Below, in pieces: positions 19,932-50,415 of a stretch of 64,000 nt of DNA; position 1 is the stretch's first letter; every line of letters starts with the position of its first letter. The stretch is from Mytilus trossulus. Its lineage: Eukaryota. The notes under the pieces are model-generated. The model ran no database searches, was not told where the DNA came from, and was given only the letters and a program-made list of their open reading frames with translations. The translations under genes and the position numbers were made by a program. The stretch covers positions 12,214,001 through 12,278,000 of the forward strand of contig NC_086385.1 in assembly GCF_036588685.1 (NCBI RefSeq). The letters run 5' to 3'.

Positions 19932-20295
19932 GACCGCCTCGGCGGTGTAATGGTTAGCGTGCTCGCCACGAGTGCGGTAGGCCGTGGGTTCGACCATCGG
20001 CCGAGTCAAACCAAAGACATGGAAATTGTTTTTGCTGCTTCTCTGCCAAGCACGCGCATTAAGGAGTTAGAGCAAAGACTGGTCGGCCCGGAGTCAGAAT
20101 AATGTGTCCGGGTAAGATGACATGTCTTCCTGCGAACTGTTACCTTGTGAGCTAGATCGTTACAAATCCGGCTCAGCGTGTCGGTCTAGTACAAAGCAGG
20201 GTAAATATTCATATATCATTATCATGTCATTGTTCTCATCCTGAATATGCAAATAACTTGCCACTGGACGTTAAACATCCATCCATCCATCCATC
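19932..20295 (+). mobile_element. tRNA-derived SINE (central domain resembles the Meta/MESC domain of mollusc SINEs)
   Basis: A box GGTGTAATGGTTAGC, B box GGTTCGACC, central TGCTGCTTCTCTGCCAAGCACGCGCATTAAGGAG, 3' TTGCCACTGGACGTTAAA plus (CATC)n tail. Confidence 0.85.
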
Positions 20296-22490: not shown

Positions 22491-23883
22491 ATTAAAGTTC
22501 AATTCTTCTTGAATAATTGATAGGTCTTTCCTTCCATTTTCTTTTAATTATACTGTCATAAATAAAAATATCATATATATTGATTGATTAATTTATTGAT
22601 TAGTTGGTTGATTGGTTTATTAATTAAACACTTGATAAATGGTCTCTTGAAACAAGCGGAAAAAAGAGACCTTGGATTCCGTATTTAACACATGAAACGG
22701 AAACATGCATTAATTAATGAAATAGATTGATTGATTGGTTGGTTAAACACATTGGTTGGTTAAACACGTTGCTTAAACACGTTGGTTAAACATGTTGGTT
22801 AAACACGTTGATTGGTTAAACACGTTGGAAAGGGTCAATTAAATCAGAAAAAAAGAGACCTTAGATCCCGTATTAAACACATGAAACGGAAACATGCATT
22901 GATTGATTAGTTGGTTGGTTAAACACGTTGGTTGGTTAGTTAAACACGTTGGTTAAACATGTTGGTTTAACACATTGGTTAAACACGTTCGTTAAACACG
23001 TTGGTTGGATAGGCTCAATTAAAACAAGCAACAAAAAAACCTTGGATCCCATATGAAACACATGAAACGGAAACATGCATTGATTGATTGGTTGGTTAAA
23101 CACGTTGGTTGGTTAGTTAAACACGTTGGTTAAACACGTTGGTTGGATAGGCTCAATTAAAACAAGCGAGAAAAAAAACTTGGATCCCGTATGAAACACA
23201 TGAAACGGAAACATGCATTGATTGATTGGTTGGTTGGTTAAACACGTTGGTTGGTTAGTTAAACACGTTGGTTAAACACGTTGGTTGGATAGGCTCAATT
23301 AAAACAAGCGAAAAAAAAAACCTTGGATCCCGTATGAAACACATGAAACGGAAACATGCATTGATTGATTGGTTAGTTAAACACGTTGGTTGGTTAGTTA
23401 AACACGTTGGTTAAACATGTTGGTTTAACACGTTGGTTTAACACGTTGGTTAAACACGTTGGTTAAACACGTTGGTTAAACACGTTGGTTGGATAGGCTC
23501 AATTAAAACAAGCGAAAAAAAAACCTTGGATCCCGTATGAAACACATGAAACGGAAACATGCATTGATTGATTGGTTAGTTAAACACGTTGGTTAAACAT
23601 GTTGGTTAAACACGTTAATGAAACACGTTGGTTAAACACGTTGGTTAAACACGTTGGTTGGATAGGCTGAATCAAAACAAGCGAAAAAAAACAACATTGG
23701 ATCCCGTATGAAACACATGAAACGGAAACATGCATTGATTGATTGGTTAAACATGTTGGTTAAACATGTTGGTTAAACACGTTGGTTAAACACGTTGGTT
23801 AAACACGTTGGAAAGTGTCAATTAAAACAAGCGAAAAAAAGAGACCTTGGATCCCGTATTATACACACGAAAGGGAAACTTGC

Positions 23884-23939
<56 letters not shown>

Positions 23940-24727
23940 GGTTGGAATTCAAACACACATACAACTGTTTAAATAGTGCCAAAAAACACACAATTTGATG
24001 ACCTTGACCTTTGACCTTGTGACCTTCGTCAAGGTCATTGCTCCACAAGGTCATTGCAAAAGACCGTATGGGTCAAGGACCTTTTGTTAAAGAGTTTTGC
24101 CTAAAAATGGCTTTTTAAAAACCATCAATGGGAGTTATGTCCCTTACATGATGGTAAAATCAGTATAGTCATAATGTAAAAAAGTTGCCCCTTGTAGTAC
24201 CAATCATTTTTCACTGCTTAATTTTTCTGTATCTATAACCGTTCAATAGTTATAGGGAAATGAAAAACTTTTGAAAATCTAAAATATGACCTTGACCTTT
24301 GACCTTGACCTATATTTTCTAGTTTTGGTCCAATGAACTCAAATCTGAAGACCCGCAGTCTTTATGACTTACGGTTCATGAGATTTATATGCATATCGAA
24401 AATTTAAATATTCAAGGGGAAATAACTCCTATAATAGGTCACTTGATCGCTTCGATTTTAATTATTTGAACTTGTATCATTTGGCAAGGAACATTTTAAA
24501 AAAAAACATTTGCCGCTAAGTCTTATAGTTCATGAGTTATAGCGATAACAGTGTTTTTTGTAATTGGGGAGATAACTCCTATAAAGTAAATAGTACACTT
24601 CGGTGCCCTTAATACAAGATAGCTTTTATTTACCCGATACTTGGTTCTAAAGATTATTTTGATATCTTGCGTACTTTTCTTGGCGATTGACTTTGAAAAC
24701 GGCGGAAGAAAAAGAATAATAATAATA
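22491..24727 (-). mobile_element. Outer non-autonomous Helentron (HINE), main part; its terminal 59 bp lie at 48263-48321
   Basis: Left end ATTAAAGTTCAATTCTTCTTGAATAATTGATAGGTCTTTCC (hairpin plus subTIR), central tandem repeats, 23995-24727 homologous to 47478-48211, breaks off in (AAT)n. Confidence 0.85.
22580..23945. repeat. Higher-order minisatellite inside the outer HINE
   Basis: 13-bp unit TTAAACACGTTGG in variable numbers within ~130-240-bp higher-order units marked by GGATCCCGTATGAAACACATGAAACGGAAACATGCATTGATTG; (GATT)n at 23887-23935. Confidence 0.9.
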
Positions 24728-25469
24728 ATTAAAGTTCAATTCTTCTTGAATAATTGATAGGTCTTTCCTTCCATTTTCTTTTAATTATACTGTCATAAAT
24801 AAACCGTATTCAAACCGAATGTCATTTTGAAAAAGAGGTGGTCCAGCAAATCATTTAAAATTAAATCAGTTTGAATGATACAATCAGTCGAAAAAGGCAC
24901 CAATTCCCGAAATGCAGATGTGTCACAGTTTGACGTCGCGAAAATAACAGTTTAGTTTAAATAATATGTTATTCAGTTTACGTTAGCAACATCATTACCT
25001 CTCCTGTACCTGTATCGTATGCCCTTTATTGACTAATTTTCTTTGTTTTCTTTCTGTCACCTAGTGTCAAATCTGTTTGTCTATATAAATGAAATGTCAT
25101 GCATCTATATATAGTCTATGGCCTCTACGTTGAGCTCTGTCACAGGTCTAGTCATAAAGTTAATTGTAAAACAAAAATACATTGGACATATAGGCTAATA
25201 GATCTCTGATAATTTAATGTACACTCAATATCAAAGATGTCTAGATAGAGGGCTCACGCAAACAAAAACAAACAAAAAATAACTAGAGGACGAGTTGGTT
25301 TTTCTAACATTTGGGCGACTTGTCCTAATATTAGGACGACTTGTCCTAATATATGATGTATGATTAAAGCGCCTAGCTGACTGTGATGTTTATAGCGTTA
25401 CACACGAGGAAGAAGAAATAATATTTAAAAAAGGTAACTTGGTAAGATTCACGAGACCTGAGAATGATT

Positions 25470-27210: not shown

Positions 27211-27265
27211 TTTTTATACGACCGCAAATTTTGAAAAATTTTCGTCGTATATTGCTATCACGTTG

Positions 27266-27306
<41 letters not shown>

Positions 27307-29008
27307 CGAATACTTTTAGTTTTCGCACTCTAACTTTAGTAAAAGTGAATAGAAATCTATGAAATTTTAACACAAGGTTTATGACCATAAAAGGAAGGCT
27401 GGTATTGATTTTGGGAGTTTTGGTCCCAACATTTTAGGAATTAGGGGCCAAAAAGGGCCCAAATAAGCATTTTCTTGGTTTTCGCACTATAACTTTAGTT
27501 TAAGTTAATAGAAATCTATGAAAATTTGACACAAGGTTTATAACCACAAAATAAAGGTTGGGATTGATTTTGGGAGTTTCGGTCCCAACAGTTTAGGAAT
27601 TAGGGGCCAAAAAGGGACCCAAATAAGCATTTTTCTTGGTTTTCGCACCATAGCGTTAGTATAAGTAAATAGAAATCTATGAAATTTAAACACAAGGTTT
27701 ATGACAATAAAAGGAAGGTTGGTATTGATTTTTGAAGTTTTGGTCCCAACAGTTAAGGAAAAAGGGGCCCCAAAGGGTCCAAAATTAAACTTTGTTTGAT
27801 TTCATCAAAATTGAATAATTGGGGTTCTTTAATATGCCGAATCTAACTGTGTATGTAGATTCTTAATTTTTGGTCCCGTTTTCAAATTGGTCTACATTAA
27901 GGTCCAAAGGGTCCAAAATTAAACTTAGTTTGATTTTAACAAAAATTGAAACCTTGGGGTTCTTTGATATGCTGAATCTAAAAATGTACTTAGATTTTTG
28001 ATTATTGGCCCAGTTTTCAAGTTGGCCCAAATCGGGGTCCAAAATTAAACATTGTTTGATTTCATCAAAAATTGAATGATTGGGGTTTTTTGATATGCCA
28101 AATCTAACTGTGTATGTAGATTCTTAATTTTTGGTCCAGTTTTAAAATTGGTCTAAATTAAAGTGCAAAGGGTCCAAAATTAAACTAAGTTTGATTTTAA
28201 CAAAAATTAAATTCTTGGGCCTCTTTGATATGCTGAATCTAAACATGTACTTAGATTTTTGATTATGGGCCCAGTTTTCAAGTTGGTCCAAATCAGGATC
28301 TAAAATTATTATATTAAGTATTGTGCAATAGCAAGTCTTTTCAATTGCACAGTATTGTGCAATGGCAAGAAATATCTAATTTCACAATATTGTGAAATAG
28401 CAAATTTTTTTTTAATTAAGAGTTATCTTTCTTTGTCCAGTATAGTAAGCAAGAAATATCTGCAAGAATTTTTTTTAATTGGAGTTATCTTTCTTTGTCC
28501 AGAATCAACTTAAATCTTTGTTATATACAATATACAATGTATATTCACTTTTTACTACCAACTGATAAATTTAAATAATCTTTACCATTCAGTGATAACA
28601 AGCAGTTTTTTTACATCATGTATTTAAATGAGTAGTAATTGTTGCAAACTCCATTAGAATATTTTAATTGAAATTAGTTTTGGAATAAGGGAAAGGGGGA
28701 TGTGAATAAAAAATTGGGTTAAATTTTTCTCTTTTGAAATTTCATAAATAAAAAGAAAATTTCTTCAAACATTTTTTTGAGAGGATTAATATTCAACAGC
28801 ATAGTGAATTGCTCTAAGAGGAAACAAAAATTTTAAGTTCATTTGAATACATTCATTCTGTGTCAGAAACCTATGCTGTGTCAACTATTTAATCACAATC
28901 CAAATTTAGAGCGGAATCCAGCTTGAATGTTGTGTCCATACTTGCCCCAACCGTTCAGGGTTCAACCTCTGCGGTCGTATAAAGCTACGCCCTGCGGAGC
29001 ATCTGGTT
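27211..29008 (+). mobile_element. HINE of a second family nested in the Helentron (copy 1)
   Basis: 5' subTIR TTTATACGACCGCA, partial IR, (CGT)n microsatellite, central tandem repeats, 3' subTIR TGCGGTCGTATAAA plus stem-loop, TT target. Confidence 0.9.
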
Positions 29009-29483: not shown

Positions 29484-30803
29484 CAGAGCTCCAGATAAGC
29501 TGCGTATTTGCGTGATCACGAAATACAAATATTAGAAAACCCAATGCAATTGTCCATTGCAGGGTTCAACAACCCAATTAATTCAACGGAAAACCCAATT
29601 ATATGCCAAAACCATGAGTTTTCAACCCTTTTATTGACTACCGTTTGCGTTATTTACCCTTATCTGTTTAAAGTCGTCGCGTAAACTATTTTTATAATAT
29701 TTATAATTGGAAATTTCCTGTCGTTCTAAAAATAGATCCCTGCATCAAGTACCTGAAATGGGTCCCTGTTTGAGATTTCCCTTGCTCAATAAGTACACGT
29801 GTTTTTGTAAACATTTCGATCTTCTCGGCGTTTATCTAATGAGCATGTTTCATGAGTCATATTTTTTTCGCACTGCTCGGGATTTATCATAACATACATT
29901 GAATTAAAACGAAAGTGAATGTCCGGTAAAAATATTGAATAGAAGCATGTTTTCAGCTTCTTTTGAAAATCTGAGGGAAAGTTATGATGATAACAAGACT
30001 CAGCTAGTGTTTTTAGGAAGCGTACATCAAATGCACGGGCGTTTGTGCGTACCATAATGAGAACATTGCTAATAAACACGGGGTTTCATCAAAATCGAAA
30101 TCAGTTGAAAAATGTAAAAGGCCAAATCAATTATGAAATGATAAAGCATCAGAAACCAAAAGTTCTAAATAAAATACAACTAAACCCAGATTTATGTCAA
30201 TTGAATAAAACAAAAGCATTCAGGTATAATTAGAGTTTATATACTATTATTATTCATGTGGGTATGCGCAGCCTAGAACGGCAATTTGACTATTCATACC
30301 CGCATGCGGGTACGCGCAGACACTGCCTACTTATATAATGAATACACATACCATGCACACAGGCACTGGTCTCAGAATTTATTATATTAAGGTATAAGAC
30401 GAGTGCCTGTGAATACACATATCCGTTTTTGTGAGAAAATACAAAACTGGCAAAAGGTTTGAAATGGGACACAATTTAAACCTACAATTGCTCCTCAGTG
30501 AATAAACCAAATAAAACAGCTAGCAAATAACCCTAACCATAACCCCAAACCAAATAAAACAGTTAAACAAAGAAAGAAACATATTTAAGATGGGGAAAAA
30601 TGGGTTGATATTGCCTAAATATTCAATATTGTGTCGATGAAAAAACCCAATTCATTAAGGAGCTTGGTGGTGAAAAACCCAATTTGATATAAACCTGAGG
30701 GGTGAATTGGAATTGATAATGCAATTAAAAAACTTTATCACCCAATTATATAAGAAAATGGTGGGTAAAAACCCCAATTTGTGAATTCTTATCTGGAGCT
30801 CTG
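29484..30803. mobile_element. Non-autonomous DNA transposon, 16-bp perfect TIR, 6-bp TSD
   Basis: CAGAGCTCCAGATAAG ... CTTATCTGGAGCTCTG flanked by TTTTAT/TTTTAT. Confidence 0.85.
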
Positions 30804-34506: not shown

Positions 34507-35512
34507 GTAAGTATTTTTTTTCAGCATACTTATAAAAAAGCTTAACAATTGATATTGCTCAATATTTCCCATTTCTGGGAGTATTGCATACCCTATAAAA
34601 GTTTGTCCACTTGGGTTATCCTGCCTATATAATACTTTGCCAACCCTTTAGTGCAGAGAAGTGAACATTCTTTTCATTTTATCCAGGCCATTCATGCAAT
34701 TTATTAATAATATTGTTATACTCATCAATCAAAAGAGGGACAGTCAAACTCATGACAATGCCATGGCAAAAAATGAAAAGGACAAACGGACAAACAATAG
34801 TACGCATGACACAACATAGAAAACTAAAGAATAAACAACACAAACTTCACCAAAAAAAAGGGGTGATATTTCACAAAATGATGTGTATTTAAATAACCAG
34901 ACTTGTCAAGAAAACCATTTAATCATATATTAAATAAGTTAAGCATGGTATATAAATGTGCAATTTATATGATAAAAGAAAGATAACTCAAATTTAAAAT
35001 ATTTGATAAATGCAATACAATGTTTATTTTAAGTTAGCATAGCATTCTTTACCCGTCAATGGTTTCAAGCAGTTATATTTTTTTATGAATATGGATACAT
35101 GTATGTTTATGCATTTTTTCTATAGATTTATTTAATGCTTGAAACTTTTTCAATATGCATTTAGATGTATATTATTTTGTGTTCATTATGGAGTTCTTAA
35201 TTTGAATATATATATATATTAAACGTTTCATCAGCTTCTCAAATACAATAAAAACTTTTGTTCAAATGAACAGTTTCACAAAGTGTAAACAAAAATGTTT
35301 TTAAGGTTACATCCTTGAAACAAACAGGTTAATCAATCATTGTACTATTGATTTGATTAAAAATTTTATTTATATTTTTTTTTGTTTGGCATTTCAAGCT
35401 TTAAAAACAAAGTTGGACATGACATAAGTTTGGTACTGATAATAGTAAATCTTTTACAAAACTGCATTTTGTCATAACAATATTTTTATACATTTTTTTT
35501 TCATTTCAGGTC

Positions 35513-38500
35513 ATGGCACGTAAATCAAAAAAGAGCAAAGCCTCCAAAGCCAAAGAACAAAAACTAAGAATGAGAGAAAGAAGGTTGGCAGAGGAGGCTT
35601 TGCAACAGTCTACTGATATTGATAACTTTGAAGGAGAAAGCACTGATAATGGTTATCCTGAAGGAGAAAACACTGTTAATGAATTTGCTGTCAATAAAAT
35701 TGAAATAAATGACACTGTTTTGACTGTTAACTCTGTTGTCAATAAAAGAAATCACACTGATAATGAATTGACTGTTAACTCTGTTGTCAATCATACTGAA
35801 AGAAATCACACTGATAATAAATTGACTGTTAACTCTGTTGTCAATAAAAGAAATCACACTGATAATGAATTGACTGTTAACTCTGTTGTCAATATAAGAA
35901 ATCACACTGATAATGAATTGACTGTTAACTCTGTTGTCAATAAAAGAAATCACACTGTTAATGAATTGACTGTTAACTCTGTTGTCAATAAAAGAAATCA
36001 CAGTGATAATGAATTGACTGTTAACTCTGTTGTCAATAAAAGAAATCACACTGTTAATGAATTGACTGTTAACTCTGTTGTCAATAAAAGAAATCACACT
36101 GATAATGAATTGACTGTTAACTCTGTTGTCAATAATACTGAAAGAAATCACACTGATAATGAATTGACTGTTAACTCTGTTGTCAATAATACTGAAAGAA
36201 ATCACACTGATAATGAATTGACTGTTAACTCTGTTGTCAAAAGAAATCTCACTGATAATGAATTAACTGTTAACTCTGATTGCAATGACACTGTTACTGA
36301 TTTAACTGGGCATACTGTTGCCAATACCACTGAACAGTATCAAACTGTTAATGAATTGACTACTCCTTCTGTTGACTGCAACATACATTTAGTTAAGACT
36401 AATTTGAACAATTCAGAATTGAGTAAACTAAAACGTTATTCAGATTCAATCCACAATCAGTTAGAAAACAAGCAAGCATGTCTGGGTAGAAATAATAAAA
36501 ATGACATTGATAACAAAGCAGACAAATCTGTAGATTCCAATTTATGGAAAGGTGAACAGAAAACAGGTATGCATGTAAATATCAGGTTTGAAAATCCGGT
36601 AGTTTTATATGATTTATCAAGATCACAAGTAACACTAGAACAAAATAATCGAGTCATTCAGGGTAGTTTCCATCAAGGAAATACCAGGTTTGGTGAAAAC
36701 GCTGGGAAACAATGTGTTAGTAATTGTTTATCCGCAATAGTGCACAGTAAATTGAAACCAGTTTTTGCATGGAACAAGTTTTATCTTGACAATATACTAA
36801 TTGAAGGTAACGACATTTATACATCTGTGCACGGTACTAATAATTATCTCTGTGTGGAAGACCTTCCAGAATTTGTAGATCTAAGAAATCGTATTATTCA
36901 TTGTCGCAAGAAACGTTCCATTTGTGCATTTGTACATGACGTTGACCCAGATTTTGATGGCGTCTTACCTTTGGACCAAGCCCTGCAATATGCATTAATA
37001 GACTCAGATGGATGCTTTGTTACTGTAAGAGCAACAACATCATTAGTAATAAAGCAGAATAACAAAATATATATGTTTGATTCTCATGCAAGAAATCGTT
37101 TTGGTCTAGTAGATAATTATGGTTCTAGTATTGTATTTGAACTTCCTGACATTCAAGCTGTTTATCAACACTTTTGTAATTTTGTCCAGGATGACCAATC
37201 TGTACCTTTTGATGTAACAGGAATTACTGTTGCAATGCAAGACACAGTTGACAGTAATGTAGATATGACATTACAAGATAATGTGCAACATATTGAAATA
37301 CAAGATAGTGTACCAATACTAGGTTATTTAGATACTAAGCATAGTATTGAAGAAAATGAGACTAATGAAGAAACAATCGACAATATAAAGGGAGGATTGT
37401 TGAAAAAAACCAAGAGTCGTGTATCTGATTTTTCAAATGACATTAAATCAGACAGATTAATGAACATATCACACAATGTATCAGATGACATTGAATCCGA
37501 CAGGTTAATGGACATATCAGATGACATGGAATCAGTAGATTTTTCAAAGGTAGGGTCTCCATGTACATTTATTAAAGAAAATGAAGTTTCTGATATAGAA
37601 ATGATGTCTGATTGTAGATCTAATTTTGCTTTCAAGCCATTAGATCTTTGTTCTAAAAGGAAACTCTGTACAATATTTAATATATCTTCAAAAGAAGTGA
37701 ATAAGAACACGTGCAGTACAGAATCGTGTAATATTGGCATTCCCTTGGAAACAAAGCCCATCATAGCAGACGGAAACTGTCTCTTTAGAGCAATATCTTA
37801 TGCTGTTTCACAAAGACAAAAATTCCATACAAAAGTTAGACAAGACATAATAAAGCATAGCTTGAGTATTTCATGTCAATTGACCAGTCTATTAGAAAAT
37901 CAATATGATTCAGTGGAAGAACATATAAGTGGTCGTAAAATGAGAGAGAACAATTCATGGGGAACTGCATTGGAAATAATCGCTGCAGCAGACCTTCTTA
38001 AAACGGATATTTATACGTTTTATAATGGAGTATGGATAAAGTATTCATCGTCTCAAATTTTTACAAACAGTGAAATAAATGAACGTGCAATCTATCTTCA
38101 ACACAACGGAGACTTACAACACTATGAGGTTGTATTATCAGTTTTACCAGAGATGGACATACCACTTGAAAGTAATAGAGTTGCAATGAAGAGAAAATGT
38201 GAGCAAAATGATTTATTTGTTTCAAAGAAACACAAAAAACTGGATCAACGGGCTAGTAGTCTAAATGATGAAAACAATTCTTCTGTTAAATCGTCACAGA
38301 AAGAAATACATTCAGGTAAAGATGTAACTGAACAACAAAACGTATCAAAATGCGAAAAACAAAAATTAAAGTATCACACTGATTCTCAATTAAGGTACAA
38401 CAAATTATCAGCACTAAAGAAAAAGTATTCGAACGATAAGTCGTACAAAGCTCAGAAAATAAGACAAGGAAAGGAGAAGTATCAGAATGATTACACATAT

Positions 38501-41500
38501 AAATTAGATATTAAAAAAGCTTCAAAAGATAAGTATATAGCAGACGAAAAACACAGAGAAGGAAAAAAAAATGAAAGCATTGAAAAATATAAAAATAATG
38601 ATGAATTCAAAAATAAACTGAAACATGCAAGCATCCACAAATATGCTACTGACAATGAACATCAAAATAGAATTAAACAGGCAAGCATTCACAAGTATGC
38701 TACTGATGATGAATATCAAACTAAGGTGAAACAGGCAAGCATTCACAAGTATGCTACTGATGATGATTATCAAAATAAGGTGAAACAGGCAAGCATTCAC
38801 AAGTATGCTACTGATGATGAACACAGAAGAAATGTTAAATCTCAGATTTTGTCTAAAAGAATTCTTTCTAAAGAAGAAAGCAAAGACATAACAAAAGTTA
38901 TTAAAAAATTTAAGAAAGATGTATGTGAAGGACCTGAATATATTTGTGCTTGCTGTTTTAGACTTTGTTTTCAAAATCAAGTCATGGAATATAAGAAGGA
39001 TTTGTATCAAAAGGATTCTGTAAAAGATGTAGCAGACACTTGCATTTCTGATAAGTATTTGCATAAATGTTTAGACGAATGCGAAGATGAATGTAAGTAT
39101 CAAGGAACTAGTAGACAATCCCTTTGGATTTGTTACACATGTCACAGAAAGATCCAGAAAGGAAAAGTGCCTGCTGAATCTTTTTTTAACAACTTATTAT
39201 TAGATGATGTTCCTAATGAACTTAGCAAATTAAATCAACTAGAACAACATTTAATTTCTCTTAATATACCTTTCATGAAGATAATTGCTCTACCTAAAGG
39301 TGGCCAAAAGGCAGTTCATGGACCATGTGTTTGTGTACCGTCAGATATTTTTAAGGTAACTACTACTTTGCCTAGATCTGAAGATGACAATTGTTTAGTT
39401 AAAGTGAAGCTCAAAAGGAAATTACAGTATAAGGGTTATGAGGAATATCAATTTGTTGATACTAAACATTTAGAAGAAGCATTGCTATTTTTAAAAGAAA
39501 AAAATGAGTGGTATTCAAATATAGTAATCAATGAAAAGTGGTTGAACCCTATTCCTTTACAAAATAACGACTGTTGCCCTGAAGTAGAGAGCATGGACAC
39601 TTCAACAACAACAAATGAAACGCTAAATGATAATTTGCAAGATAGGTCAAATACAGAGGAACAAACAAATGAAGCGGATACATACTTAGATGATACTTTA
39701 CAGGGCGTTCAGTTGGACACATGTTTACAGCCTGCTGATATTGCACAGGAAGCTTTAGATGCATTGTTTGATAAGGAATTCAATCTATCACCTGCAGAGG
39801 AAAATAACCCTGTAAGTCTTTTGAGAACAAAGGGTATTGAAGCTCAAACGTTTCCAGTACATTATCCTACAGGTAAAAACACATTGAATGAAGAGAGAGA
39901 AGAAAAGTTATCTTTATTAAGATATTTCAATCTGAGATTAATGAGTGTAGAAAACCGATTTGCAAGAGATACTTCTTATATATTCTTTTGTCAATATATG
40001 TCTGAACTAGATAGAGTTATGTCAAATGTTCAAATTTCCTTAAGGAAAGGATCGGTGTTTTCAAATGGAAAGAAAGTAACAGGCAAAATGCTATGTGATA
40101 AAGACACATTACATGGGTTATTCCGAAAAGATGAGGCAATAAAGTTTATGAAACCTGTAAGAGGAACACCTCCTTATTGGCAAGCTGAACAAAAGAATAT
40201 TTTTGCTATGATTCGCCAGTTAGGTATTCCCACATTCTTTGCCTCGTTTTCTTCTGCAGACTTCAGATGGAAAGAAATCATAGAAACAATATTGAAGCAA
40301 CAAGGAGATATTCGTAAGTTTGACGAACTTACTTGGGATGAAAAGTGCAAAGTCCTTTGTAGTAATCCTGTTACACCTGCACGAATGTTTGATCGTAGAT
40401 TTAAAAGATTTCTAAAAGATGTTATAATGTCAGATGCTCAACCAATTGGTCATGTGATAGACTACTTTTATAGAGTTGAATTTCAACAGAGAGGTTCTCC
40501 ACACACGCACTGTTTGTTCTGGGTAGAAGATGCCCCAAAATTTAATGAAGATGAAGATGATATTGTAACTGAGTTTGTTGACAAATATATAACATGTAAA
40601 CTACCGCTGGAAACCGAGGACTCAGAGCTAAAAGACATTGTCACAACTGTACAACAACATAGCAAAACACATTCAAAAAGTTGTAGAAAAAAGGGAACTG
40701 TGTGTCGTTTTAATTTCCCAAGACCACCCTCTGAAAAAACATTTATATCACGCCCACCTAAGGATGATGAAGAAGAATGTAGTGTTGCTGATGACACTGA
40801 TGAAGATGTTGACGATGATGTTGTTGAAAAACCAAAATCGGGAATTAGTTCATTAGAAGCTAAAAAGATATTAGAATCTCTATGGGCTGTAATCAAAGAC
40901 TGTGAAAAGGAAAATTTAACTACTACGGAGTTATTCATAAGGGCAGGAGTATCTCAGGAAGATTTTCAAGAATGCTTTAGGTCAGTTACATATAGAAATA
41001 CTGTGGTGTTAAAAAGAAACAAAAATGAAATGTTTATCAATCAGTACAACCCGCATCTCCTGAAAGCATGGGATGCAAATATGGACATACAATACATATT
41101 AGATGCTTATTCTTGTGTTGTTTATATAATAAGTTACATCAGTAAATCAGAACGTGAACTTGGATTGTTGCTACAACAAACAAAAAATGAGGCCGCTGAT
41201 GGAAATTTGAATGCACAACATACAATGAAACAAGTAGGTACTGCATACTTTCACTTTCGAGAGCTGAGTGCCCAAGAAGCTGTTTTTAGAGTGATCGGCT
41301 TAAGTTTGAAAGAATGTTCAAGAAAAGTTGAATTCATTCCAGTTGGAGAAAATCCATGTAAAATGAGTATTCCTCTAAAAGAACTTTTAATCAAATCTAA
41401 AAGCGCAAATACAAAAAAACCTTCAAAGGAAATCGATGATGATGATGACATTGATGACGGTGATGATATCGAACTTTGGATGAAAAGCATTACTGATAGA

Positions 41501-44266
41501 TATAAAAGTCGACCAGAACTTGAATTATTTAATCAGATGTGTTTAGCTTCATTTTGCTCCGAGTTTTCAGTTTTAGCAGAAACACAGATTCCAAATAAAA
41601 TAAATGAAGATACCACATTCAAACTTAAAAATGATATGGGATACATCAGAAAGCGGACAAGAACCCAGCCTGCTATTATCAAATATGCACGATTTTCCAT
41701 TGAAACATCGCCTGAACAGTACTACCAAAGTATTTTACAGTTATATTTACCTTACAGATTAGAGGAACAGTTGAAACCGCCACAATTTTTGACATATGAA
41801 TTGTTTTACAAATCAGGAATGGTCAGGTATAATCAGAAAGAGGTTCTTGTTAAAGTCGAACAAATAGTTAATACTAACATGTCCAACTTTGTGAAAAGTG
41901 GCAAAGAGCTAGAAGCTGCAGAACAAAAATTGGAAGAAAATGATTACCAAGAAGATGCGTGGGCAGACCTATGTCCAGAAACAGAGAGTGAAAGAAGTGA
42001 ATGCACTGAAGCAGCCAAATCTTCAACTGTCATAGAAGTCGACAGTCCTGAATTTGGAATACCAGATTTAAATAAAAGTAACAAGCCAGAAATAGTTAGT
42101 GGAAATGGGATTAAAACTTGTTTACTAAGGTCGGAAGTTATACCCTTGTTGAGAGGTTTAAACATGAAACAAAGGCGTATTTTCTATAAGGTAAGAGAAT
42201 GGTGCAACCTAAAAGCCAATGGTAAAAATCCCCCTCCCTTTCACGTCTTTGTAACAGGCGGAGCTGGAACAGGAAAAAGCCATCTGATTAAATGCTTACA
42301 TTATGAAACCACAAGAATTCTTGCTCGTTGCTCTCCTAGTCCAGACGATTTGACAGTTTTATTGACTGCACCAACTGGCACTGCAGCCTTCAATATAAAT
42401 GGATTGACGATTCACCATGCTCTTTCTATTTTCAAAACTCTTACTGTTGACAAAGCGATGCTTGGTGAAGATAAGCTGAACACTTTAAGGTCAAAATTAG
42501 AAAATTTACAAATTTTAATCATAGACGAAGTCTCAATGGTCAACAAGAGGTTGTTATTCTTCATTCATGAACGGTTGCGTCAGATCAAGAAAAGACCTGA
42601 AAAAGATCCTTTTGGTGGGGTTTCAGTGATAGCTGTTGGAGATTTTTTTCAGTTACCACCAGTAAAATGCCGAAAAACTGATAAACTTTATGTAGATGAT
42701 CCATCGAATCCTTTGAACTATCTGTGGAACGATTTCTTCACTATTGTAGAATTAGATGAAGTCATGAGACAACGTGAAGATGGTTTGTTTGCTCAGTTAT
42801 TGAATAGACTTAGGATAAAAGACAAATATTCTCCTTTAGAATCCTCAGATTTAAAAATGTTAAAGCAGTGTATAGGTAGTGGGACAGATGAAGCTTTACA
42901 CATTTATGCTACTAATAATGAGATTAATATTCACAATACTGAAATGGTTATTAAACTGTCCAGTGAACCTAAGTTAATTGAAGCACAAGATTTTGAAAAA
43001 AATAAAGCTACAGGAAAACTAAGAAAGAAAACAGCAAATTTTTCACAAACTGATATTTGTCTCCCAACTTCAATTCTATTAGCTGAAGGAGCCCGCGTAA
43101 TGCTGAAAAAGAATGAAGCCGTCAATGATGGCTTGGTAAATGGGGTAATGGGCACTATTGTCAGCATTGCAGAATTTTTAGAAGGGTCTTTGCCGAATGT
43201 TATTTTTATCAATTTTGACAATGAGAGAGTAGGAAAAAACGCTAAGATTCAAAAAACAATAAATGGGAAAAGATGCGTTGGATTGGAACCATCTACAGAG
43301 GACATACCATTCAAAAATGGAACGAGAAAACAGTTTCCTTTGCAGTTAGCATGGGCATGTACTGTTCATAAAGTTCAGGGTTTGACAGTTTCACAAGCAG
43401 TTGTGGATTTGAATAAATGCTTCACTTATGGCCAGGCATATGTTGCATTGAGTAGAGTTACTACAAAAGAAGGGCTTCATATATTACCAATTGATGACAA
43501 AACACTTGGTAAAAAAATATACTGTGATCCTGATATCATAACAGGCATAAAAACAATGAAACATTATCTGACTGAAAATGTAGAAGCATCATCTGAAGAA
43601 ACACTTGTAACTATTGTTTATCACAATATCCAAGGACTAAGAGCTCATAAAAATGATTTAGTGGCTAATTCAGACTGTACAGATGCAGATTATGTCTGTC
43701 TGACTGAAACATGGCTTGAATCTTCCTCTGATCATGTTTATCTTCCTAACTATGATTTTTATCACCAACCAAGATCTGCAGCCTACACACCGACTAATTC
43801 TGTGTTTATGAATTTGCAAGCTATGGGCCACGGAGGAGTAGGAGTATATGTAAAAACAGATTCTGAATATGAAAATTGTAACATTACCGTGGAAAATCTA
43901 GAATGTATGACTTTCAGAATTCCCACCATGAATGTCCTTGTGGCAACAATATATAGAACTCAGAAGTATCAAATTGGAATATTTCTTAAAACATTTATTT
44001 CGTTTGTAAGCAAATTGACTGAACTTTCAAACAATATCATTGTTTTAGGTGACTTTAATCAAGACATATTAAAGGGAGAAAGATCCATACTGGACTATAT
44101 GACTTCAAAAGGATTTCAACAGCTAGTGGAAGAGGCCACAACAGAAGGTGGTACATTGATTGATCATGTCTATGTCAAAGGTTGCTCAAAAGTAGAAGTT
44201 AAAGGCATTCCAACTTACTACAGTTATCACGATGCTGTTTCCATAATGCTTAAAGATAGCCGATAA
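35513..44266 (+). CDS. Helentron RepHel polyprotein (2917 aa): tandem repeat - VTD/peptidase C76-like DUB - OTU DUB - Zn finger/DUF6570-like - HUH Rep - PIF1 helicase - APE endonuclease
   Basis: QGSFHQG...AGKQCVSN...FDSHAR (VTD, ~36650-37230); ADGNCLFRAIS...WG...HY (OTU, ~37745-38140); YICACC...WICYTCH; VEFQQRGSPHTHCLFW and YIISYISK (Helentron-type Rep); GGAGTGKS, IIDEVSMV, GDFFQLPPV, MRQ, FPLQLAWACTVHKVQGLT, GQAYVALSRV (PIF1); HNIQGL, LTETWL, GDFN, IDHVY, SYHD (APE). GTCATGG Kozak context. Confidence 0.95.
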   Translation: MARKSKKSKASKAKEQKLRMRERRLAEEALQQSTDIDNFEGESTDNGYPEGENTVNEFAVNKIEINDTVLTVNSVVNKRNHTDNELTVNSVVNHTERNHTDNKLTVNSVVNKRNHTDNELTVNSVVNIRNHTDNELTVNSVVNKRNHTVNELTVNSVVNKRNHSDNELTVNSVVNKRNHTVNELTVNSVVNKRNHTDNELTVNSVVNNTERNHTDNELTVNSVVNNTERNHTDNELTVNSVVKRNLTDNELTVNSDCNDTVTDLTGHTVANTTEQYQTVNELTTPSVDCNIHLVKTNLNNSELSKLKRYSDSIHNQLENKQACLGRNNKNDIDNKADKSVDSNLWKGEQKTGMHVNIRFENPVVLYDLSRSQVTLEQNNRVIQGSFHQGNTRFGENAGKQCVSNCLSAIVHSKLKPVFAWNKFYLDNILIEGNDIYTSVHGTNNYLCVEDLPEFVDLRNRIIHCRKKRSICAFVHDVDPDFDGVLPLDQALQYALIDSDGCFVTVRATTSLVIKQNNKIYMFDSHARNRFGLVDNYGSSIVFELPDIQAVYQHFCNFVQDDQSVPFDVTGITVAMQDTVDSNVDMTLQDNVQHIEIQDSVPILGYLDTKHSIEENETNEETIDNIKGGLLKKTKSRVSDFSNDIKSDRLMNISHNVSDDIESDRLMDISDDMESVDFSKVGSPCTFIKENEVSDIEMMSDCRSNFAFKPLDLCSKRKLCTIFNISSKEVNKNTCSTESCNIGIPLETKPIIADGNCLFRAISYAVSQRQKFHTKVRQDIIKHSLSISCQLTSLLENQYDSVEEHISGRKMRENNSWGTALEIIAAADLLKTDIYTFYNGVWIKYSSSQIFTNSEINERAIYLQHNGDLQHYEVVLSVLPEMDIPLESNRVAMKRKCEQNDLFVSKKHKKLDQRASSLNDENNSSVKSSQKEIHSGKDVTEQQNVSKCEKQKLKYHTDSQLRYNKLSALKKKYSNDKSYKAQKIRQGKEKYQNDYTYKLDIKKASKDKYIADEKHREGKKNESIEKYKNNDEFKNKLKHASIHKYATDNEHQNRIKQASIHKYATDDEYQTKVKQASIHKYATDDDYQNKVKQASIHKYATDDEHRRNVKSQILSKRILSKEESKDITKVIKKFKKDVCEGPEYICACCFRLCFQNQVMEYKKDLYQKDSVKDVADTCISDKYLHKCLDECEDECKYQGTSRQSLWICYTCHRKIQKGKVPAESFFNNLLLDDVPNELSKLNQLEQHLISLNIPFMKIIALPKGGQKAVHGPCVCVPSDIFKVTTTLPRSEDDNCLVKVKLKRKLQYKGYEEYQFVDTKHLEEALLFLKEKNEWYSNIVINEKWLNPIPLQNNDCCPEVESMDTSTTTNETLNDNLQDRSNTEEQTNEADTYLDDTLQGVQLDTCLQPADIAQEALDALFDKEFNLSPAEENNPVSLLRTKGIEAQTFPVHYPTGKNTLNEEREEKLSLLRYFNLRLMSVENRFARDTSYIFFCQYMSELDRVMSNVQISLRKGSVFSNGKKVTGKMLCDKDTLHGLFRKDEAIKFMKPVRGTPPYWQAEQKNIFAMIRQLGIPTFFASFSSADFRWKEIIETILKQQGDIRKFDELTWDEKCKVLCSNPVTPARMFDRRFKRFLKDVIMSDAQPIGHVIDYFYRVEFQQRGSPHTHCLFWVEDAPKFNEDEDDIVTEFVDKYITCKLPLETEDSELKDIVTTVQQHSKTHSKSCRKKGTVCRFNFPRPPSEKTFISRPPKDDEEECSVADDTDEDVDDDVVEKPKSGISSLEAKKILESLWAVIKDCEKENLTTTELFIRAGVSQEDFQECFRSVTYRNTVVLKRNKNEMFINQYNPHLLKAWDANMDIQYILDAYSCVVYIISYISKSERELGLLLQQTKNEAADGNLNAQHTMKQVGTAYFHFRELSAQEAVFRVIGLSLKECSRKVEFIPVGENPCKMSIPLKELLIKSKSANTKKPSKEIDDDDDIDDGDDIELWMKSITDRYKSRPELELFNQMCLASFCSEFSVLAETQIPNKINEDTTFKLKNDMGYIRKRTRTQPAIIKYARFSIETSPEQYYQSILQLYLPYRLEEQLKPPQFLTYELFYKSGMVRYNQKEVLVKVEQIVNTNMSNFVKSGKELEAAEQKLEENDYQEDAWADLCPETESERSECTEAAKSSTVIEVDSPEFGIPDLNKSNKPEIVSGNGIKTCLLRSEVIPLLRGLNMKQRRIFYKVREWCNLKANGKNPPPFHVFVTGGAGTGKSHLIKCLHYETTRILARCSPSPDDLTVLLTAPTGTAAFNINGLTIHHALSIFKTLTVDKAMLGEDKLNTLRSKLENLQILIIDEVSMVNKRLLFFIHERLRQIKKRPEKDPFGGVSVIAVGDFFQLPPVKCRKTDKLYVDDPSNPLNYLWNDFFTIVELDEVMRQREDGLFAQLLNRLRIKDKYSPLESSDLKMLKQCIGSGTDEALHIYATNNEINIHNTEMVIKLSSEPKLIEAQDFEKNKATGKLRKKTANFSQTDICLPTSILLAEGARVMLKKNEAVNDGLVNGVMGTIVSIAEFLEGSLPNVIFINFDNERVGKNAKIQKTINGKRCVGLEPSTEDIPFKNGTRKQFPLQLAWACTVHKVQGLTVSQAVVDLNKCFTYGQAYVALSRVTTKEGLHILPIDDKTLGKKIYCDPDIITGIKTMKHYLTENVEASSEETLVTIVYHNIQGLRAHKNDLVANSDCTDADYVCLTETWLESSSDHVYLPNYDFYHQPRSAAYTPTNSVFMNLQAMGHGGVGVYVKTDSEYENCNITVENLECMTFRIPTMNVLVATIYRTQKYQIGIFLKTFISFVSKLTELSNNIIVLGDFNQDILKGERSILDYMTSKGFQQLVEEATTEGGTLIDHVYVKGCSKVEVKGIPTYYSYHDAVSIMLKDSR
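35719..36280 (+). repeat. Coding tandem repeat, 48/54-bp units (RNHTDNELTVNSVVNK x ~11)
   Basis: Visible in DNA and protein; all length variants are multiples of 3. Confidence 0.95.
38621..38836 (+). repeat. Coding 54-bp tandem repeat (KQASIHKYATDDEYQNKV x4)
   Basis: Four near-identical 18-aa units, with degenerate units upstream (~38400-38620). Confidence 0.9.
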
Positions 44267-44694: not shown

Positions 44695-46892
44695 GGAGAC
44701 TTTTCTGTTTAAACTATTCAGATTCCAAAGATTGGTGAAATAATATCCTTCCCCCTCCCTGTACCCTTACCCCTCCCCCACCAAGTAAAATTTATACATA
44801 ATGTCACATATCAAAAAGCCATTTTAACCGAAAAGTGCAAAATAAACTGACAACTCCATGGCAAATAAGAAAAAAGATAAAATGGCAAACAAAAGTACAC
44901 AAAACACAACAGGGGGAAAAAGCTGATCAACACGAACTCCACCTAAAACGATCTCAATTAATTTGTTTTCTATTTCAGATCAAACCAAAAGACTTCAGTG
45001 GTGTGCAAGATTACTTGAATGTTTGACTAATCAAACTATTGTTTAAATATGTCATATTTGGATGATTTTAATATTAATACAGAAAGAAGTCTTCATTTAT
45101 TCCACTTAGTGGTGTGACATTTTTTTTAAAACCATATTTATATATTTATTGTTACATTGTTTTAATTTGTAAATAATATTTCATATATAATGTCTCATAA
45201 GCCAGATGTTTTGCTTGATATTGATTGTTTATTACGTATGAATATTGTGTATGAATTCTTTTTTTTTTTATTGCAAACAATTCGTGTCACTTCAATAAAT
45301 ATATTTACTGTCTATGTCCAATTATTTAGTCACAATCATTTTCGTTCAACATAAGGATTACCTCCAGTAAGATATCATTGTAGTTGATAACAATAAACTA
45401 TTGTTGGTAGATATTTTTAAGTATGAAATAGTAGAGTAACAGGTTTGCGGTTTTCAAGAAATCACTTCTGGTTACATATATCAATGTATTTAAAACACCA
45501 TAAGTCCTATACTAGTGAAATCTGCAGACTATGGTATATGGCTGGTTGATAACATCGTCCACGTTACCAAGAGAAAAAACGGCATAGGCGGCTCACCATA
45601 AATTTCGTTTTTCATTTGTGGAATCAAGGATACAAATAAAATCATAATAGTTATCAAAGGCAACAGGCTTATAATTTGGTGCCCCAGACGCTCGTGTCTT
45701 TTGTCTTTTTAAGACTGATTAGTGACGCTCGGATCACAATAGTTAGAAAGTCAAACAAGTATGAAGTTGAAGAGGACCAAGGACCCAAAAATCCCCAAAA
45801 AGTACCAAATACGGCTAAGATCATCTATTCCTGGGATAAGAACATCCTTAGTATTTGGAATTATTAACAAATTTGCAAACAGAGTACTGTTGATTAGTCT
45901 CTGCGTGGTTTTGATTAATAATCAGTATGTTGATAATGAAGAAGGCAAACTCGGTGCGGTAAATGTCTTACTGATTTTGGTATTGGAGTTAAAACAACAC
46001 AAACTTCAATATCAACATTTTAAAAAGGATATCAAATTTTATAAAAAGAATGCAGTACCATACCATGATAATTACCGCAAATCGTCCTTCTGCAGTGTAT
46101 CTCCCGTAACTAATTATTTTGTGCAGTATAAGATTATCATGTTTCACCCGTTCGCTCAACCTGTGTTGGAAATGACGATGCCTACATTTCTGTCACATGG
46201 TGATGGAAGTCACATGATATAATCAAATATAACTACTGTATCCTGGAACTGTTGTAATAGGTTCTACTATATGTTTAGACGTTTCGGGATTCTCTGGTTT
46301 TGTCGGAATGATACACACATTCATTAATTTCTTTGCAAAATGTATATAAAAAAAAGAAGATTTGGCATGATTGTCAATGACATAATACAGAAATAAACAA
46401 CTAAAGGTCATAAATAAAATTGAGAATGGAAATGGGGAATGTGCAAAAGAGACAACACCACGACCATAGAGCAGGCAACATGTTTACTTTTTTCTAATTA
46501 TAAGGATTGTAAATAATGGTACCCTATAGAAATTGCAATGAGAATAGTTGTGCAATTGTAATCAATATAATCCAGCAGAAGTCTAAATGGGATCATGCTT
46601 GATTTCATCCACTAAAAGTTTGTGAGAGGAAAATCACTTTGATTTTTATCAATATGGGATCATGCTTGATTTCCTCCAATAAAAGTTTGAAAAATCACTT
46701 TAATTTCATCAAATGTATCTCGAGATTTTGACGAAAACGATAAAGGCCAAAATGATGTATTAAATTGAATTATCTCTTGATTTTTTCCGGTCAAATTCTA
46801 CTTCCTGAGATATCCCTTAAGAAGTAGTAAGGTCAAAGGTCAATGTCAACCAAGAAATGCATTCAAATGCACATAAAACTTTTTAAATGAGT

Positions 46893-47780
46893 ATCTAAAA
46901 TATGACCTTTGACCTTTGACCTTGTGACCTTCGTCAAGGTTATTGCTTCACAATGTCATTGCACAAGACATTAGTGGTGTAGGACCTGTTGTTTAAGAGT
47001 TTTGCCCAATAATGTCTTTTTGTAAACCATCAATGGGGATTATGTCCCTTACACAATGGTAAAACCTATACAGTCATATAGTAACAAAGTTGCCTTTTTA
47101 TTTACCAAGCATTTTTCACTCCTTAAATTTTCTGTATCTATAATCATTCAAGAATTATGGGGAAATCAAAGACATGTGGAAATCTAAAATATGACCTTGA
47201 CCTTTGACCTTGCAACCTATGTCAAGGTCATTACTCCACAATGTCATTGCACAAGACCTTATGGCTGTAGGACCTTTTGTTTAAGAGTTTTGCCTAATAA
47301 CGTATTTTTGTAAACCACCAATGGGGATTATATCCCTTACACAATGGTTAAACCAATACAGTCATATTGTAACAAAGTTGCCCCTTGAAGTACCAAGCAT
47401 TTTTCACTACTTAACTTTTCTGTATCTATAATCATTCAATAATTATAGGGAAATCAAAGACATATGGAAATCTAAAATATGACCTTGACCTTTGACCTTG
47501 TGACCTTCGTCAAGGTCATTGCTCCACAATGTCATTGCAAAAGACCCTATGGGTCAAGGACCTTTAGTTTAAGAGTTTTGCCTAAAAATGACTTTTTAAA
47601 AACCATCAGTGGGAGTTATGTCCCTTACATGATGGTAAAATCAATATAGTCATTATGTAAAAAAGTTGCCCCTTGAAGTACCAAGCATTTTTCACTGCTT
47701 AAATTTCCTGTATCTTTAACCGTTCAGGAATTATAGGGAAATTAAAAACTTTTAAAAATCTAAAATATGACCTTGACCTT
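46893..47780. repeat. ~288-bp tandem repeat (3 units plus a partial) in the Helentron subterminal region
   Basis: Units start with ATCTAAAATATGACCTT(T)GACCTTTGACCTTG at ~46893, 47183, 47470, 47758; the outer HINE has one unit. Confidence 0.9.
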
Positions 47781-48262
47781 TGACCTTGACCTATATTTTC
47801 AAGTTTTGGTCCAATGAACTCAAATCTGAAGACCCGCAGTCTTTACGACTTACGGTTCATGAGATTTATATGCATATCGAAAATTTAAAAATTCAAGGGG
47901 AAATAACTCCTATAATAGGTCACTGGATCGCTTCGGCTAAAGTAATTTGAAGTTGTAACTTTTGGCAAGGAACATTTAAAAAAAAACCATTTGCCGCTAA
48001 GTCTTATAGTTTATGAGATATAGCGATAACAGTGTTTTTTGTAATTGGGGAGATAACTCCTATAAAGTAAATAGTACACTTCGGTGCCCCTTATACAAGA
48101 TAGCTTTTATTAACCCGATACTAGATACCAAAGATCATTTTGATATCTTGCGTACTTTTATCACCGATTAACTTTGAAAAACGGCAGAAGAAAAAGAATA
48201 ATAATAATAATAAACAAACGAAATACAGTAAGGTCTTTCCATTTAAGAAAGGAAAGACCTTA

Positions 48263-48321
48263 ATAATAATAAACAAACGAAATACAGTAAGGTCTTTCCA
48301 TTTAAGAAAGGAAAGACCTTA
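48263..48321 (-). mobile_element. Displaced terminal segment of the outer HINE
   Basis: (AAT)n-AAACAAACGAAATACAG-TAAGGTCTTTCC-N10-GGAAAGACCTTA, exactly the piece missing after 24727. Confidence 0.85.
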
Positions 48322-50415
48322 ATTACAATGGAACACTCTGTGAAACGTGTCATTTTTGAAAGGAAGATCGAGAACATTTCCTTTTCGAATGCAGACTTTC
48401 CCATCATGTATTTTCTTTGCTAGTCGGCTTTTGGCTAGTGAAACCATTTTATCAGAAAAGTCTATACCATATATTTTACCATTGCCATCTGAAGTAAAGG
48501 AAAAACTAAACATTAACACTAAAAAATGAATTTTTATAGCTGACTATGCGGTTAGGCTTGCTCATTGTTGAAGGCCGTACGGTGACCTATCAATCTAATT
48601 AAAATATTGATCTATACTATGTAGTATAACGTAATCAGAGATCAATATTTTAATTAGATTGGGTGACCTATTGTTGTTAATGTCTGTCATTTTGGTCTTT
48701 TGTGGATAGCTGTCTCACTGGCAATCATACCACATCTTCTTTTCATAATGTTAATATATAAAATTGAGATTAAGAACAAGGGCACATTATATATTATGTA
48801 AACAAAACAATAACGATAGTGTATGAAATAACAAAACTGATAACAAAAATTAAAGAGAGGAATCTTAACCCCAAGCCCCGAGAATTTGACAAAATCAGAT
48901 TTTTCCTCCTTTTTTTTGAATGACCCTGGCCACACTCTTTCTCGGTAAATAACTCATTTATTGAAACAGACACATGTTTCTGGAAAACAAAAGTGTGTCC
49001 ATAGTACATGCATGCTCCACGCCATCTTCCATGTTCATTCACTGCAGACGTGCTGGTTTTGATCATTCCAAGCCATCTGTTAGAATAGTCATCAAAGGTA
49101 CCAGGATTATAATTTAGTACGCCAAACCCGCATTTCGACTACATATGACTCATCAGTGACGCTCAAATTAAAAAAAAATATAAAGCAAAACAAGTACAAA
49201 GTTGAAGTCACGGCATTGATGACCCAAAATTCCGAACCTTGTTCCAAATACAGCTAAGCAATTTCAATTGATTTAGACTTTTTGTGCTGTTTGTTTGTAG
49301 ATTTGTGTTTTGATTGTACTTTTCACTTCACGAATTTGTCACATTGTGGTAGATAACGTCTCGTGTCAATATATTTGTCATATGTCACATATGATGTTTG
49401 TTTTTGTACTGCATTTTCTAAGAAAGACTTTTGTAACATAAAGCGTAATAAGTCAGTCACATTTCTACAAGCTTACCCGTTACATATTTACAAGCAGCTT
49501 CTAGTCCAACTCCTGGTCCGAACCCAACCTCTAAAACATCGTAGTGTGGTTCAATCTGACACAGTTTTACAGCACTTTCTTCTAAAACCACATTTCGTCT
49601 CAAAAAGATATTCTGAATTTGAAAAAAGGTTACAAACAAAGTTGTTGATCATAGGTGCAATTGGTGCCAAGATGTTTAAAAGTTTCAAAATGTTTTGTTC
49701 ATAACCCGATGAAAGATAATGACGTGTGTGTTCTTGAATTGGTCGGGTCGTTGACTCTTTGACATATTCCCCATTTCAATTCTCCATTTTATGAATACTG
49801 AAGCAGCCGACCTGTAAATGTCCATCCTTTCATTAAATACAATCACTTACATATCAAAATGAGTAGTAACCTGGAATAGACATGCAAGTTTACTATGATT
49901 CTGTTATGAATATTAAAATGTGAAGATATGTGTGGATTAATATACATTAATATTTTAACTTAACATCAAGCATGTCATGAATATTTAACCGATTGTACAT
50001 CATATGGAAGATGAAGCAAAAATACCAAAGCTCTCTTGTTGACTTTTATTTTAAAACGATGTTTGGCAATAGGTTGAATTACAATTTTTAAATTTCTCAA
50101 AATAAGTTTTATGCCAGGCTGAAAATTTCAGGCAAAAACTTAATGCCTAGGCGTTAGTTCATTGTCAGGGATTTGAGCGCGATGCCTAATTTTTCTTATT
50201 ATCTAACATATATTTATGGCTGTAAACTACTTGTAGAATCTTTCAAGGGCTCACATACAACTAAGGAAATTCAATCCTTTTTAGCCCACCCAAATTCGTT
50301 CCGAACGGTAAAAACTATGAAGACTGATATATACCTTCGTAACATACCAACCAAAGAAGCCACTTCCAGGTTTCCGCAGATTCTGTGCTAAATATTCTCT
50401 GAAGATATTAGTCAT
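48322..50415 (-). pseudogene. 5' part of the disrupted class I SAM-dependent methyltransferase gene; coding exons 50415-50335, 49612-49477, 48488-48322
   Basis: Canonical GT-AG junctions with phases 0 and 1: MTNIFREYLAQNLRKPGSGFFGWYVTK|NIFLRRN...DVLEVGFGPGVGL (motif I)...VT|DGNGKIYGIDFSDKMV...GNVLDLPFKNDTFHRVFHCN; a TAA is created at the element junction. Confidence 0.9.

Follow-up and report, generated by a model that had tools for sequence, protein, structure and literature searches.

Transposons that carry deubiquitinases (DUBs) have been described among the Helitrons. Erven et al. 2022 (PMC9741609) reported VTD-containing Helitrons, including in molluscs, 121 of which also have an OTU domain, and showed that three zebrafish Helitron VTDs cleave K48- and K63-linked ubiquitin chains. 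The VTDs of DrT1 also cleave NEDD8, and the VTD of DrT2 (a zebrafish element with both VTD and OTU) is active, with negligible activity on NEDD8. These authors proposed that the VTD protects from proteasomal degradation and discussed its homology with herpesviruses; as of that publication transposon OTUs stood without an activity test, and the literature that we searched, which covered few subscription journals, returned no later test of a Helitron OTU. According to the accessible part of the HELIANO study (PMC11417382), Herpes_teg_N and EN domains are enriched in subgroup b of the HLE2 elements, accessory domains are non-essential and most HLE2 and HLE1 elements lack VTD and OTU. Helentrons paired with non-autonomous HINEs (Thomas et al. 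2014, PMC4067079), the Cg_HINEs of oyster (PMC7492417) and active RC elements in oysters (bioRxiv 10.64898/2026.02.10.705023) are likewise described in the accessible parts of these reports. No paper pairing 'Helentron' with 'transposition assay' was found in the literature that we searched.

We analysed a window of 64,000 nt from the mussel Mytilus trossulus (assembly GCF_036588685.1, contig NC_086385.1, positions 12,214,001–12,278,000; coordinates below count from its first letter). Its plus strand holds one ATG-to-stop frame of 2,917 aa at 35513–44266—the next-longest frame in the window has 400 aa—which confirms the full-length, intact ORF proposed by an earlier sequence-only reading of this DNA. 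The domain order is VTD/C76, OTU, Zn-finger/DUF6570, HUH Rep, PIF1 and APE, and all Pfam matches exceed the curated cut-offs: Herpes_teg_N (aa 385–528, E = 8.6e-11), OTU (aa 752–842, E = 1.5e-7), DUF6570 (aa 1216–1345), Helitron_like_N (aa 1471–1668), PIF1 (aa 2216–2424) and Exo_endo_phos (aa 2720–2894). Asn/Thr-rich repeats of 16–18 aa (48-bp unit, 11.5 copies; 35720–36286) precede the VTD (36650–37243, aa 380–577; C401, D523, H525) and the OTU domain (37745–38152, aa 745–880; D753, C756, H870, E872). Basic 'SxxKY' repeats of 18 aa (54-bp unit; 38598–38821), which the homolog consensus shows too, separate the DUBs from a putative Cys-rich Zn finger with DUF6570 (38930–39547). The HUH Rep (39923–41152) carries YFYRVEFQQRGSPHTH (aa 1651–1666) and YxxxY (1871/1875), the PIF1-like helicase (42158–43522) GGAGTGKS and DEVS, and the APE-type endonuclease (43595–44254) ETW, GDFN, DHVY and SYHD, all on the plus strand.

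From its sequence traits, the element that encodes this protein is classed as an autonomous Helentron (HLE2). Helentron Rep motif 2 (F/Y-x-R, then V/I-ExQxRG-S-P-HxH), used as a diagnostic in the accessible part of PMC4067079, is matched by the Rep segment at aa 1651; a PIF1 helicase and a C-terminal AP endonuclease are fused to Rep; and the HLE2 marker DUF6570 is present. The element spans 23,535 bp (24728–48262, plus strand), including two later insertions, as judged from end motifs and the alignment of eleven other genome regions (twelve copies) to the window; among the matches listed, copies align from about 24717–24727 to about 48215–48327, a full copy covering about 24720–48270. Its subTIRs are asymmetric, with a weak left hairpin and a strong right stem. 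At the left end (24736–24770; the '3-prime' end in the DINE-1 convention), a hairpin at 24736–24757, which folds into a 5-bp stem, lies outside a 12-bp subTIR (24759–24770). At the right end (48228–48262; the '5-prime' end in the same convention), an inverted repeat gives a 12-bp stem and a 12-bp subTIR (48249–48260) stands 2 nt from the end of the element, inverted relative to the left one; the 66-nt end folds at −11.6 kcal/mol. The defined termini of the sequence-only reading are thus at 24728 and 48262. Under the convention of PMC4067079, which makes the right end 5-prime, the ORF lies in minus orientation, as it does in Helentron-Da-40 (PMC4067079) and as also described in PMC5148889, within the accessible parts of both.

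The non-autonomous partner that had likewise been claimed is real and shares both ends with the element, which sits inside it. The left part of this HINE (22491–24727, plus strand, 2,237 bp, with central 13-bp and ~138-bp repeats) and its displaced last 59 bp (48263–48321, plus strand, appearing as a 59-bp tandem duplication) add up to 2,296 bp; its first 76 bp match the left end of the element at 100% identity, and its last 730 bp match the right arm at 93%. The AAT microsatellite that the Helentron interrupts belongs to its own HINE (2.3 kb), and the element is flanked there by A^A on the plus strand (T^T on the minus strand), and the HINE itself is also flanked by A^A, so that both insertions fall between T and T. 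SubTIRs, an inverted repeat, a palindrome, a microsatellite, central tandem repeats and a TT target are traits that the pair has in common with the Helentron/HINE pairs of PMC4067079 and the Cg_HINEs (PMC7492417); the oyster study was unable to assign an autonomous partner to its HINEs, whereas the mussel partner is identified and lies inside its own HINE.

Two insertions interrupt the left arm. A 1.8-kb repeat (27216–29006) is missing from the other copies compared, including one 99.76% identical to the window element; a relative of this repeat, about 92% identical, lies at about 60340–61970, and both contain a CGT microsatellite as well as internal arrays of 159 bp and 135/126 bp. The other insertion (1.3 kb, 29484–30803) is common to the copy at G000:C7:77.77 Mb and absent from the others shown. 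In the right arm, 288-bp repeats occupy 45550–47480, where most copies have the 13-bp and 138-bp repeats of the HINE.

A homolog search with aa 375–885, a query that favours two-domain matches, returned 68 proteins, 1,604–5,105 aa long, whose hosts are many fish, oysters, mussels and a limpet; named relatives from Mytilus, at 90–98% identity, support a bivalve host. Both domains were found in 56 of the 68 long homologs by precomputed Pfam annotation and in 64 by our own profiles (partial domains counted), with the VTD first in all 64; both sites are intact in 55 of the 68. This provides the survey of VTD and OTU co-occurrence that the sequence-only reading had called for, and the layout appears to be common, the figure of 64/68 being no measure of its share among Helentrons. 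The novelty which that reading had implied for the architecture does not hold, given the 121 published Helitrons (PMC9741609). These and DrT2 share with the mussel element a VTD and an OTU inside the RepHel–APE ORF; the mussel element differs in its host. The word 'Mytilus' was not found in three supplements of PMC9741609, and the mussel element may or may not be among the 121. In HLE2 subgroup b, by contrast, the OTU is mostly in a separate ORF according to the accessible part of PMC11417382, whereas in the mussel element it is in frame.

Some homologs vary the theme. The fish homologs P0027, P0028, P0030, P0032 and P0039, among others, have an inactive VTD ahead of the active one, and in fish homologs of the same type an inactive OTU, mostly with a Cys-to-Ser change, follows the active OTU; these duplicates, absent from the mussel element, are possibly ubiquitin-binding pseudo-DUBs. 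Four mussel homologs (P0022, P0023, P0024 and P0026) keep the VTD but no longer have the N-terminal, catalytic half of the OTU, and offer a natural single-DUB comparison.

The VTD motifs proposed earlier are present in the translation (Q400-C401 and F522-D523-S-H525), and C401, D523 and H525 supply the Cys and the invariant Asp-x-His motif of C76 DUBs. In the PDB, sequence alone gave two weak matches for this domain (E = 0.021 and 0.19), neither of them the zebrafish Helitron VTD 8ADD. An AlphaFold model built on a 46-row alignment (pLDDT 93.6) nevertheless had 8ADD as its best PDB match (E = 4.6e-16, TM 0.85, 18% identity), followed by MCMV M48 (2J7Q, TM 0.81); the fold search proposed for aa ~380–575 thus ends on the fold of DrT1-VTD2, with the Cys…Asp-x-His site shared across the set of Erven et al. 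2022. Because zebrafish relatives cut K48 and K63 chains, the mussel VTD very likely cuts ubiquitin chains as well.

The fold and catalytic geometry of the mussel VTD also resemble those of the herpesviral large tegument DUBs (UL36/UL48/BPLF1 and M48), which are parts of the virion rather than of a transposase. In BFVD, 29 entries matched at E of 0.001 or better: 23 named herpesviral tegument proteins (13–24% identity, TM 0.71–0.84), three nameless entries and three giant-virus proteins. Other Helentron VTDs are much closer to the mussel domain, at 24–53%. The relevance to transposon–herpesvirus domain exchange that had been suggested is unsupported for any recent event, at 13–24% identity to the herpesviral folds, and the homology is old. 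Predicted VTD-like folds (TM 0.52–0.59) were also seen in proteins of Tupanvirus, Catovirus, Yasminevirus and Indivirus (BFVD A0A6N1NWC7, A0A1V0SAW3, A0A5K0U9Y5 and A0A1V0SCX7); neither 'mimivir' nor 'giant vir' occurs in the main text of PMC9741609.

The OTU domain likewise bears the motifs read earlier (D753-G-N-C756 and H870-Y-E872). Its AlphaFold model (45-row alignment, pLDDT 89.4), made for the fold search proposed for aa ~745–880, best matches OTUD3 (4BOU, E = 1.8e-7) and OTUD1 (4BOP, E = 4.5e-7) in the PDB; the domain combines the D-x-x-C and His motifs with the OTU fold, and probably cuts ubiquitin chains, by analogy with its relatives. As in OTUD3, OTUD1 and nairoviral OTUs, it is a minimal fold with D-G-N-C and His motifs; unlike them, homologs of the mussel type mostly have Glu at the third triad position (65 of 79 homolog domains).

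Among 92 candidates in the genome, 81 are VTD matches, 29 of them in frames of at least 2,700 aa. Fourteen are 97–100% identical to the window VTD (family A), 12 of these in frames of at least 2,900 aa; eight further matches at 53–54% (family B) all lie in frames of at least 2,818 aa. Some of the copies, on small unplaced contigs, may duplicate chromosomal arrays. Family B (L113–L127 and L105–L112) is a second VTD+OTU Helentron with about 70% amino acid identity in the core and the same subTIR. Its own HINE is 0.9 kb long, and by inserting into the AAT tract of that HINE it builds Russian-doll stacks of nested ends. The 39-nt left end of the window element has 160 exact copies in the genome, against 14 close VTD copies. 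One copy on another contig, with different flanks and a frame in three pieces, matches the window element at 99.76% identity across 19.2 kb, which indicates recent activity of the element. Sites and selection were assessed in 19 full frames—12 of family A and the seven retrieved from family B—with the broken or partial copies C7a, C5b, C5c and L111 excluded. The nine active-site positions checked are invariant in 19/19. Nonsynonymous/synonymous variant ratios, with each variant codon counted once, are 0.15 for the VTD (p = 1e-8) and 0.26 for the OTU (p = 9e-6) in family A, next to 0.26 for Rep, 0.18 for PIF1 and 0.26 for APE; the linker between the two DUBs gives 1.05. In family B the VTD gives 0.09 and the OTU a weaker signal (0.44, p = 0.044). 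Both DUB domains are under purifying selection and the linker between them is neutral, which argues that both still matter to the element; selection speaks for their usefulness and says nothing on their substrate.

Relative to the window copy, 8 of 11 copies differ by 3–13% from the VTD to just past the OTU and by 0–0.7% in the Rep–helicase blocks. The other three behave differently: C12 is close throughout, C5a is different throughout and C196 diverges less from the window copy in its DUBs than it does in the core. Trees of the DUB region and the Rep–helicase region disagree, and the DUB module (36650–38500 in the window) appears, on these alignments, to be mosaic among copies; such a mosaic can also arise by template switching among nested copies.

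Many copies of the element lie in repeats. The first 30 left ends in the list fall into three groups. Fourteen follow a single position in a tandem unit of ~940 bp, six are in another Helentron (in its AAT tract or its end) and ten are at other places after AAT; all 16 left ends outside the satellite follow AAT. The satellite site follows TAT, shows no target duplication and is the only site at which empty alleles were seen. There are 97 exact junctions with the ~940-bp unit; of the 13 autonomous family-A copies whose left end was mapped, 9 lie at such a junction, and Helentron left ends of three or more kinds occur at one nucleotide of the unit. The unit itself (G000:C7:50134555–50135497, L047/L050, and many other loci; 1,320 exact 21-mer matches) has its own Helentron-type left end, and composites of unit plus HINE form arrays with a 2.2–3.3-kb period. 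Because it has this end and seems to travel with the element, site-specific targeting of the unit is not established; the unit appears to move as a composite with the element. Two other identities were rejected: an RNA-gene array (no Rfam hits in 13 loci, no tRNAs in 15) and one centromeric array per chromosome (a single contig holds the unit at several loci). For fungal elements, PMC5148889 describes self-insertion.

Elsewhere in the window are a 400-aa frame with DUF1647 (3714–4916, plus strand; E = 9e-14) and a weak CD59-like match, a 2.5-kb foldback-like element with long inverted arms of 21-bp repeats (18419–20963), a pair of 236-bp inverted repeats 3 kb apart and 92% identical (9885–13344), and, at 1562–1900, a 120-bp inverted repeat that is near-perfect and has a 43-bp spacer.

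A pyrimidine tract with AG lies 3 bases 5′ of the ATG (35490–35512, plus strand), as in 4 family-A and 7 family-B starts identified by pattern matching; it is a probable splice acceptor, whether of a 5′ UTR intron or of a spliced leader. In three raw RNA runs (6–18% of each sampled, tissue unspecified), no splice joint into the ATG and no spliced reads were seen, and depth over bins 36807–44086 was 0–1.3 per strand. The X1 contigs, whose RNA status is a guess, covered the 3′ two thirds of the ORF at a depth of 3–9 that rose 3′-ward, with the VTD uncovered.

HUH Rep proteins form a covalent tyrosyl–DNA bond. Rep would nick the stem-loop end and keep its covalent hold on the DNA for as long as the helicase takes to peel off the strand, which is over 20 kb long and would then be joined into an A-rich AAT target. 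So bound, it would resemble a DNA–protein crosslink and be tagged with ubiquitin for removal by SPRTN, p97 or the proteasome; the tethered DUBs would trim the chains in cis and lengthen the life of free and DNA-bound transposase, and two DUB classes would widen the range of chain types covered. For a transposase that has to remain on the DNA through more than 20 kb of unwinding, tethered chain-removing DUBs would be a gain. The accessible part of a recent preprint describes a viral HUH–DNA adduct that PARP1 flags and SPRTN engages in vitro, and the ubiquitylation of crosslinks for proteasomal removal (bioRxiv 10.64898/2026.01.09.698661). We consider it an even call that the two tethered DUBs take ubiquitin off the transposase, also where it forms a covalent adduct with DNA. 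The active sites invariant in 19/19 frames, the sites intact in 55 of 68 long homologs, the purifying selection, the folds and the cutting of K48 and K63 chains by zebrafish VTDs (PMC9741609) speak for this reading; the four homologs that lost the OTU catalytic half and retain the VTD, and the near-zero RNA depth over the ORF in three runs, speak against it. Since most HLE2 and HLE1 elements lack VTD and OTU, as far as the accessible part of PMC11417382 goes, both are dispensable for transposition.

The DUBs might instead edit ubiquitin on chromatin or repair factors at the donor or target (H2A/H2B monoubiquitin, or K63 chains at the nick) and thereby hold off its repair or silencing until strand transfer. 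Their tether to a DNA-binding enzyme, the K63 activity of relatives (PMC9741609), the position of many copies in repeat arrays and a suggestion of this kind for the Helentron OTU in the accessible part of PMC4067079 would fit; yet the VTDs assayed in PMC9741609 act on K48 chains too, and we consider chromatin editing unlikely. Rather unlikely, too, is action in trans on host defence—cullin deneddylation, or factors of innate immunity or germline silencing—in the way known from the tegument DUBs of herpesviruses, with exchange of the module among copies resembling an arms race. Here the cleavage of NEDD8 by the DrT1 VTDs and the divergence of the DUB module in 8 copies, with its discordant trees, are set against the negligible NEDD8 activity of DrT2, which has the same layout (PMC9741609), against selection that is purifying overall on both domains rather than positive, and against template switching among nested copies as another source of the mosaic.

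Cleavage of the 2,917-aa product into subunits by one or both proteases, in the manner of a viral polyprotein, had been offered by the sequence-only reading and, for the OTU, in the accessible part of PMC4067079. Sites of viral DUB cleavage are flanked by di-Gly (PMC9741609), and the VTD–OTU linker contains [LI]KGG in 11 of 12 family-A proteins and SKGG in the remaining one. Among homologs, however, GG occurs in 8 of 64 VTD–OTU linkers and [LIRK]xGG in 3, GG is found in 1 of 48 linkers between OTU and Zn finger, family B is without the site and the linker evolves neutrally; with no conserved di-Gly sites at the domain borders, such processing is very improbable. Most improbable of all is that the domains are passengers of an old capture without a present role. 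They are dispensable across Helitrons (PMC11417382, accessible part) and the OTU was lost in one mussel lineage, but the purifying selection on VTD and OTU, which flank a neutrally evolving linker, largely refutes this, and the triads are kept across mussels, oysters, a limpet and fish.

We return, then, to removal of ubiquitin from the transposase itself. Fusion without conserved cleavage sites would keep the DUBs at the adduct, and its protection by them is plausible. Only tentatively, and with more doubt than belief, do we extend this to a cassette that shields against crosslink repair, covers different chain types with its two domains and is swapped as a unit onto a common Rep–helicase core, as the host-facing part in a conflict.

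The element is real, well preserved and recently mobile, with an architecture that is itself already published; new here relative to the publications are the full frames of 12 of the 14 close copies, the selection ratios and the mosaic DUB module. Since many full-frame copies occur naturally, the ends are mapped and the 2.3-kb HINE is a matching donor, the mussel genome makes reconstruction unneeded for tests of the DUBs, and the value of the element is that of a well-preserved natural example in which to test what both enzymes do. If the more doubtful reading of a shielding cassette is true, a mobile element would be countering a host repair pathway with deubiquitinases of its own, and this would be the first role assigned to a transposon OTU.
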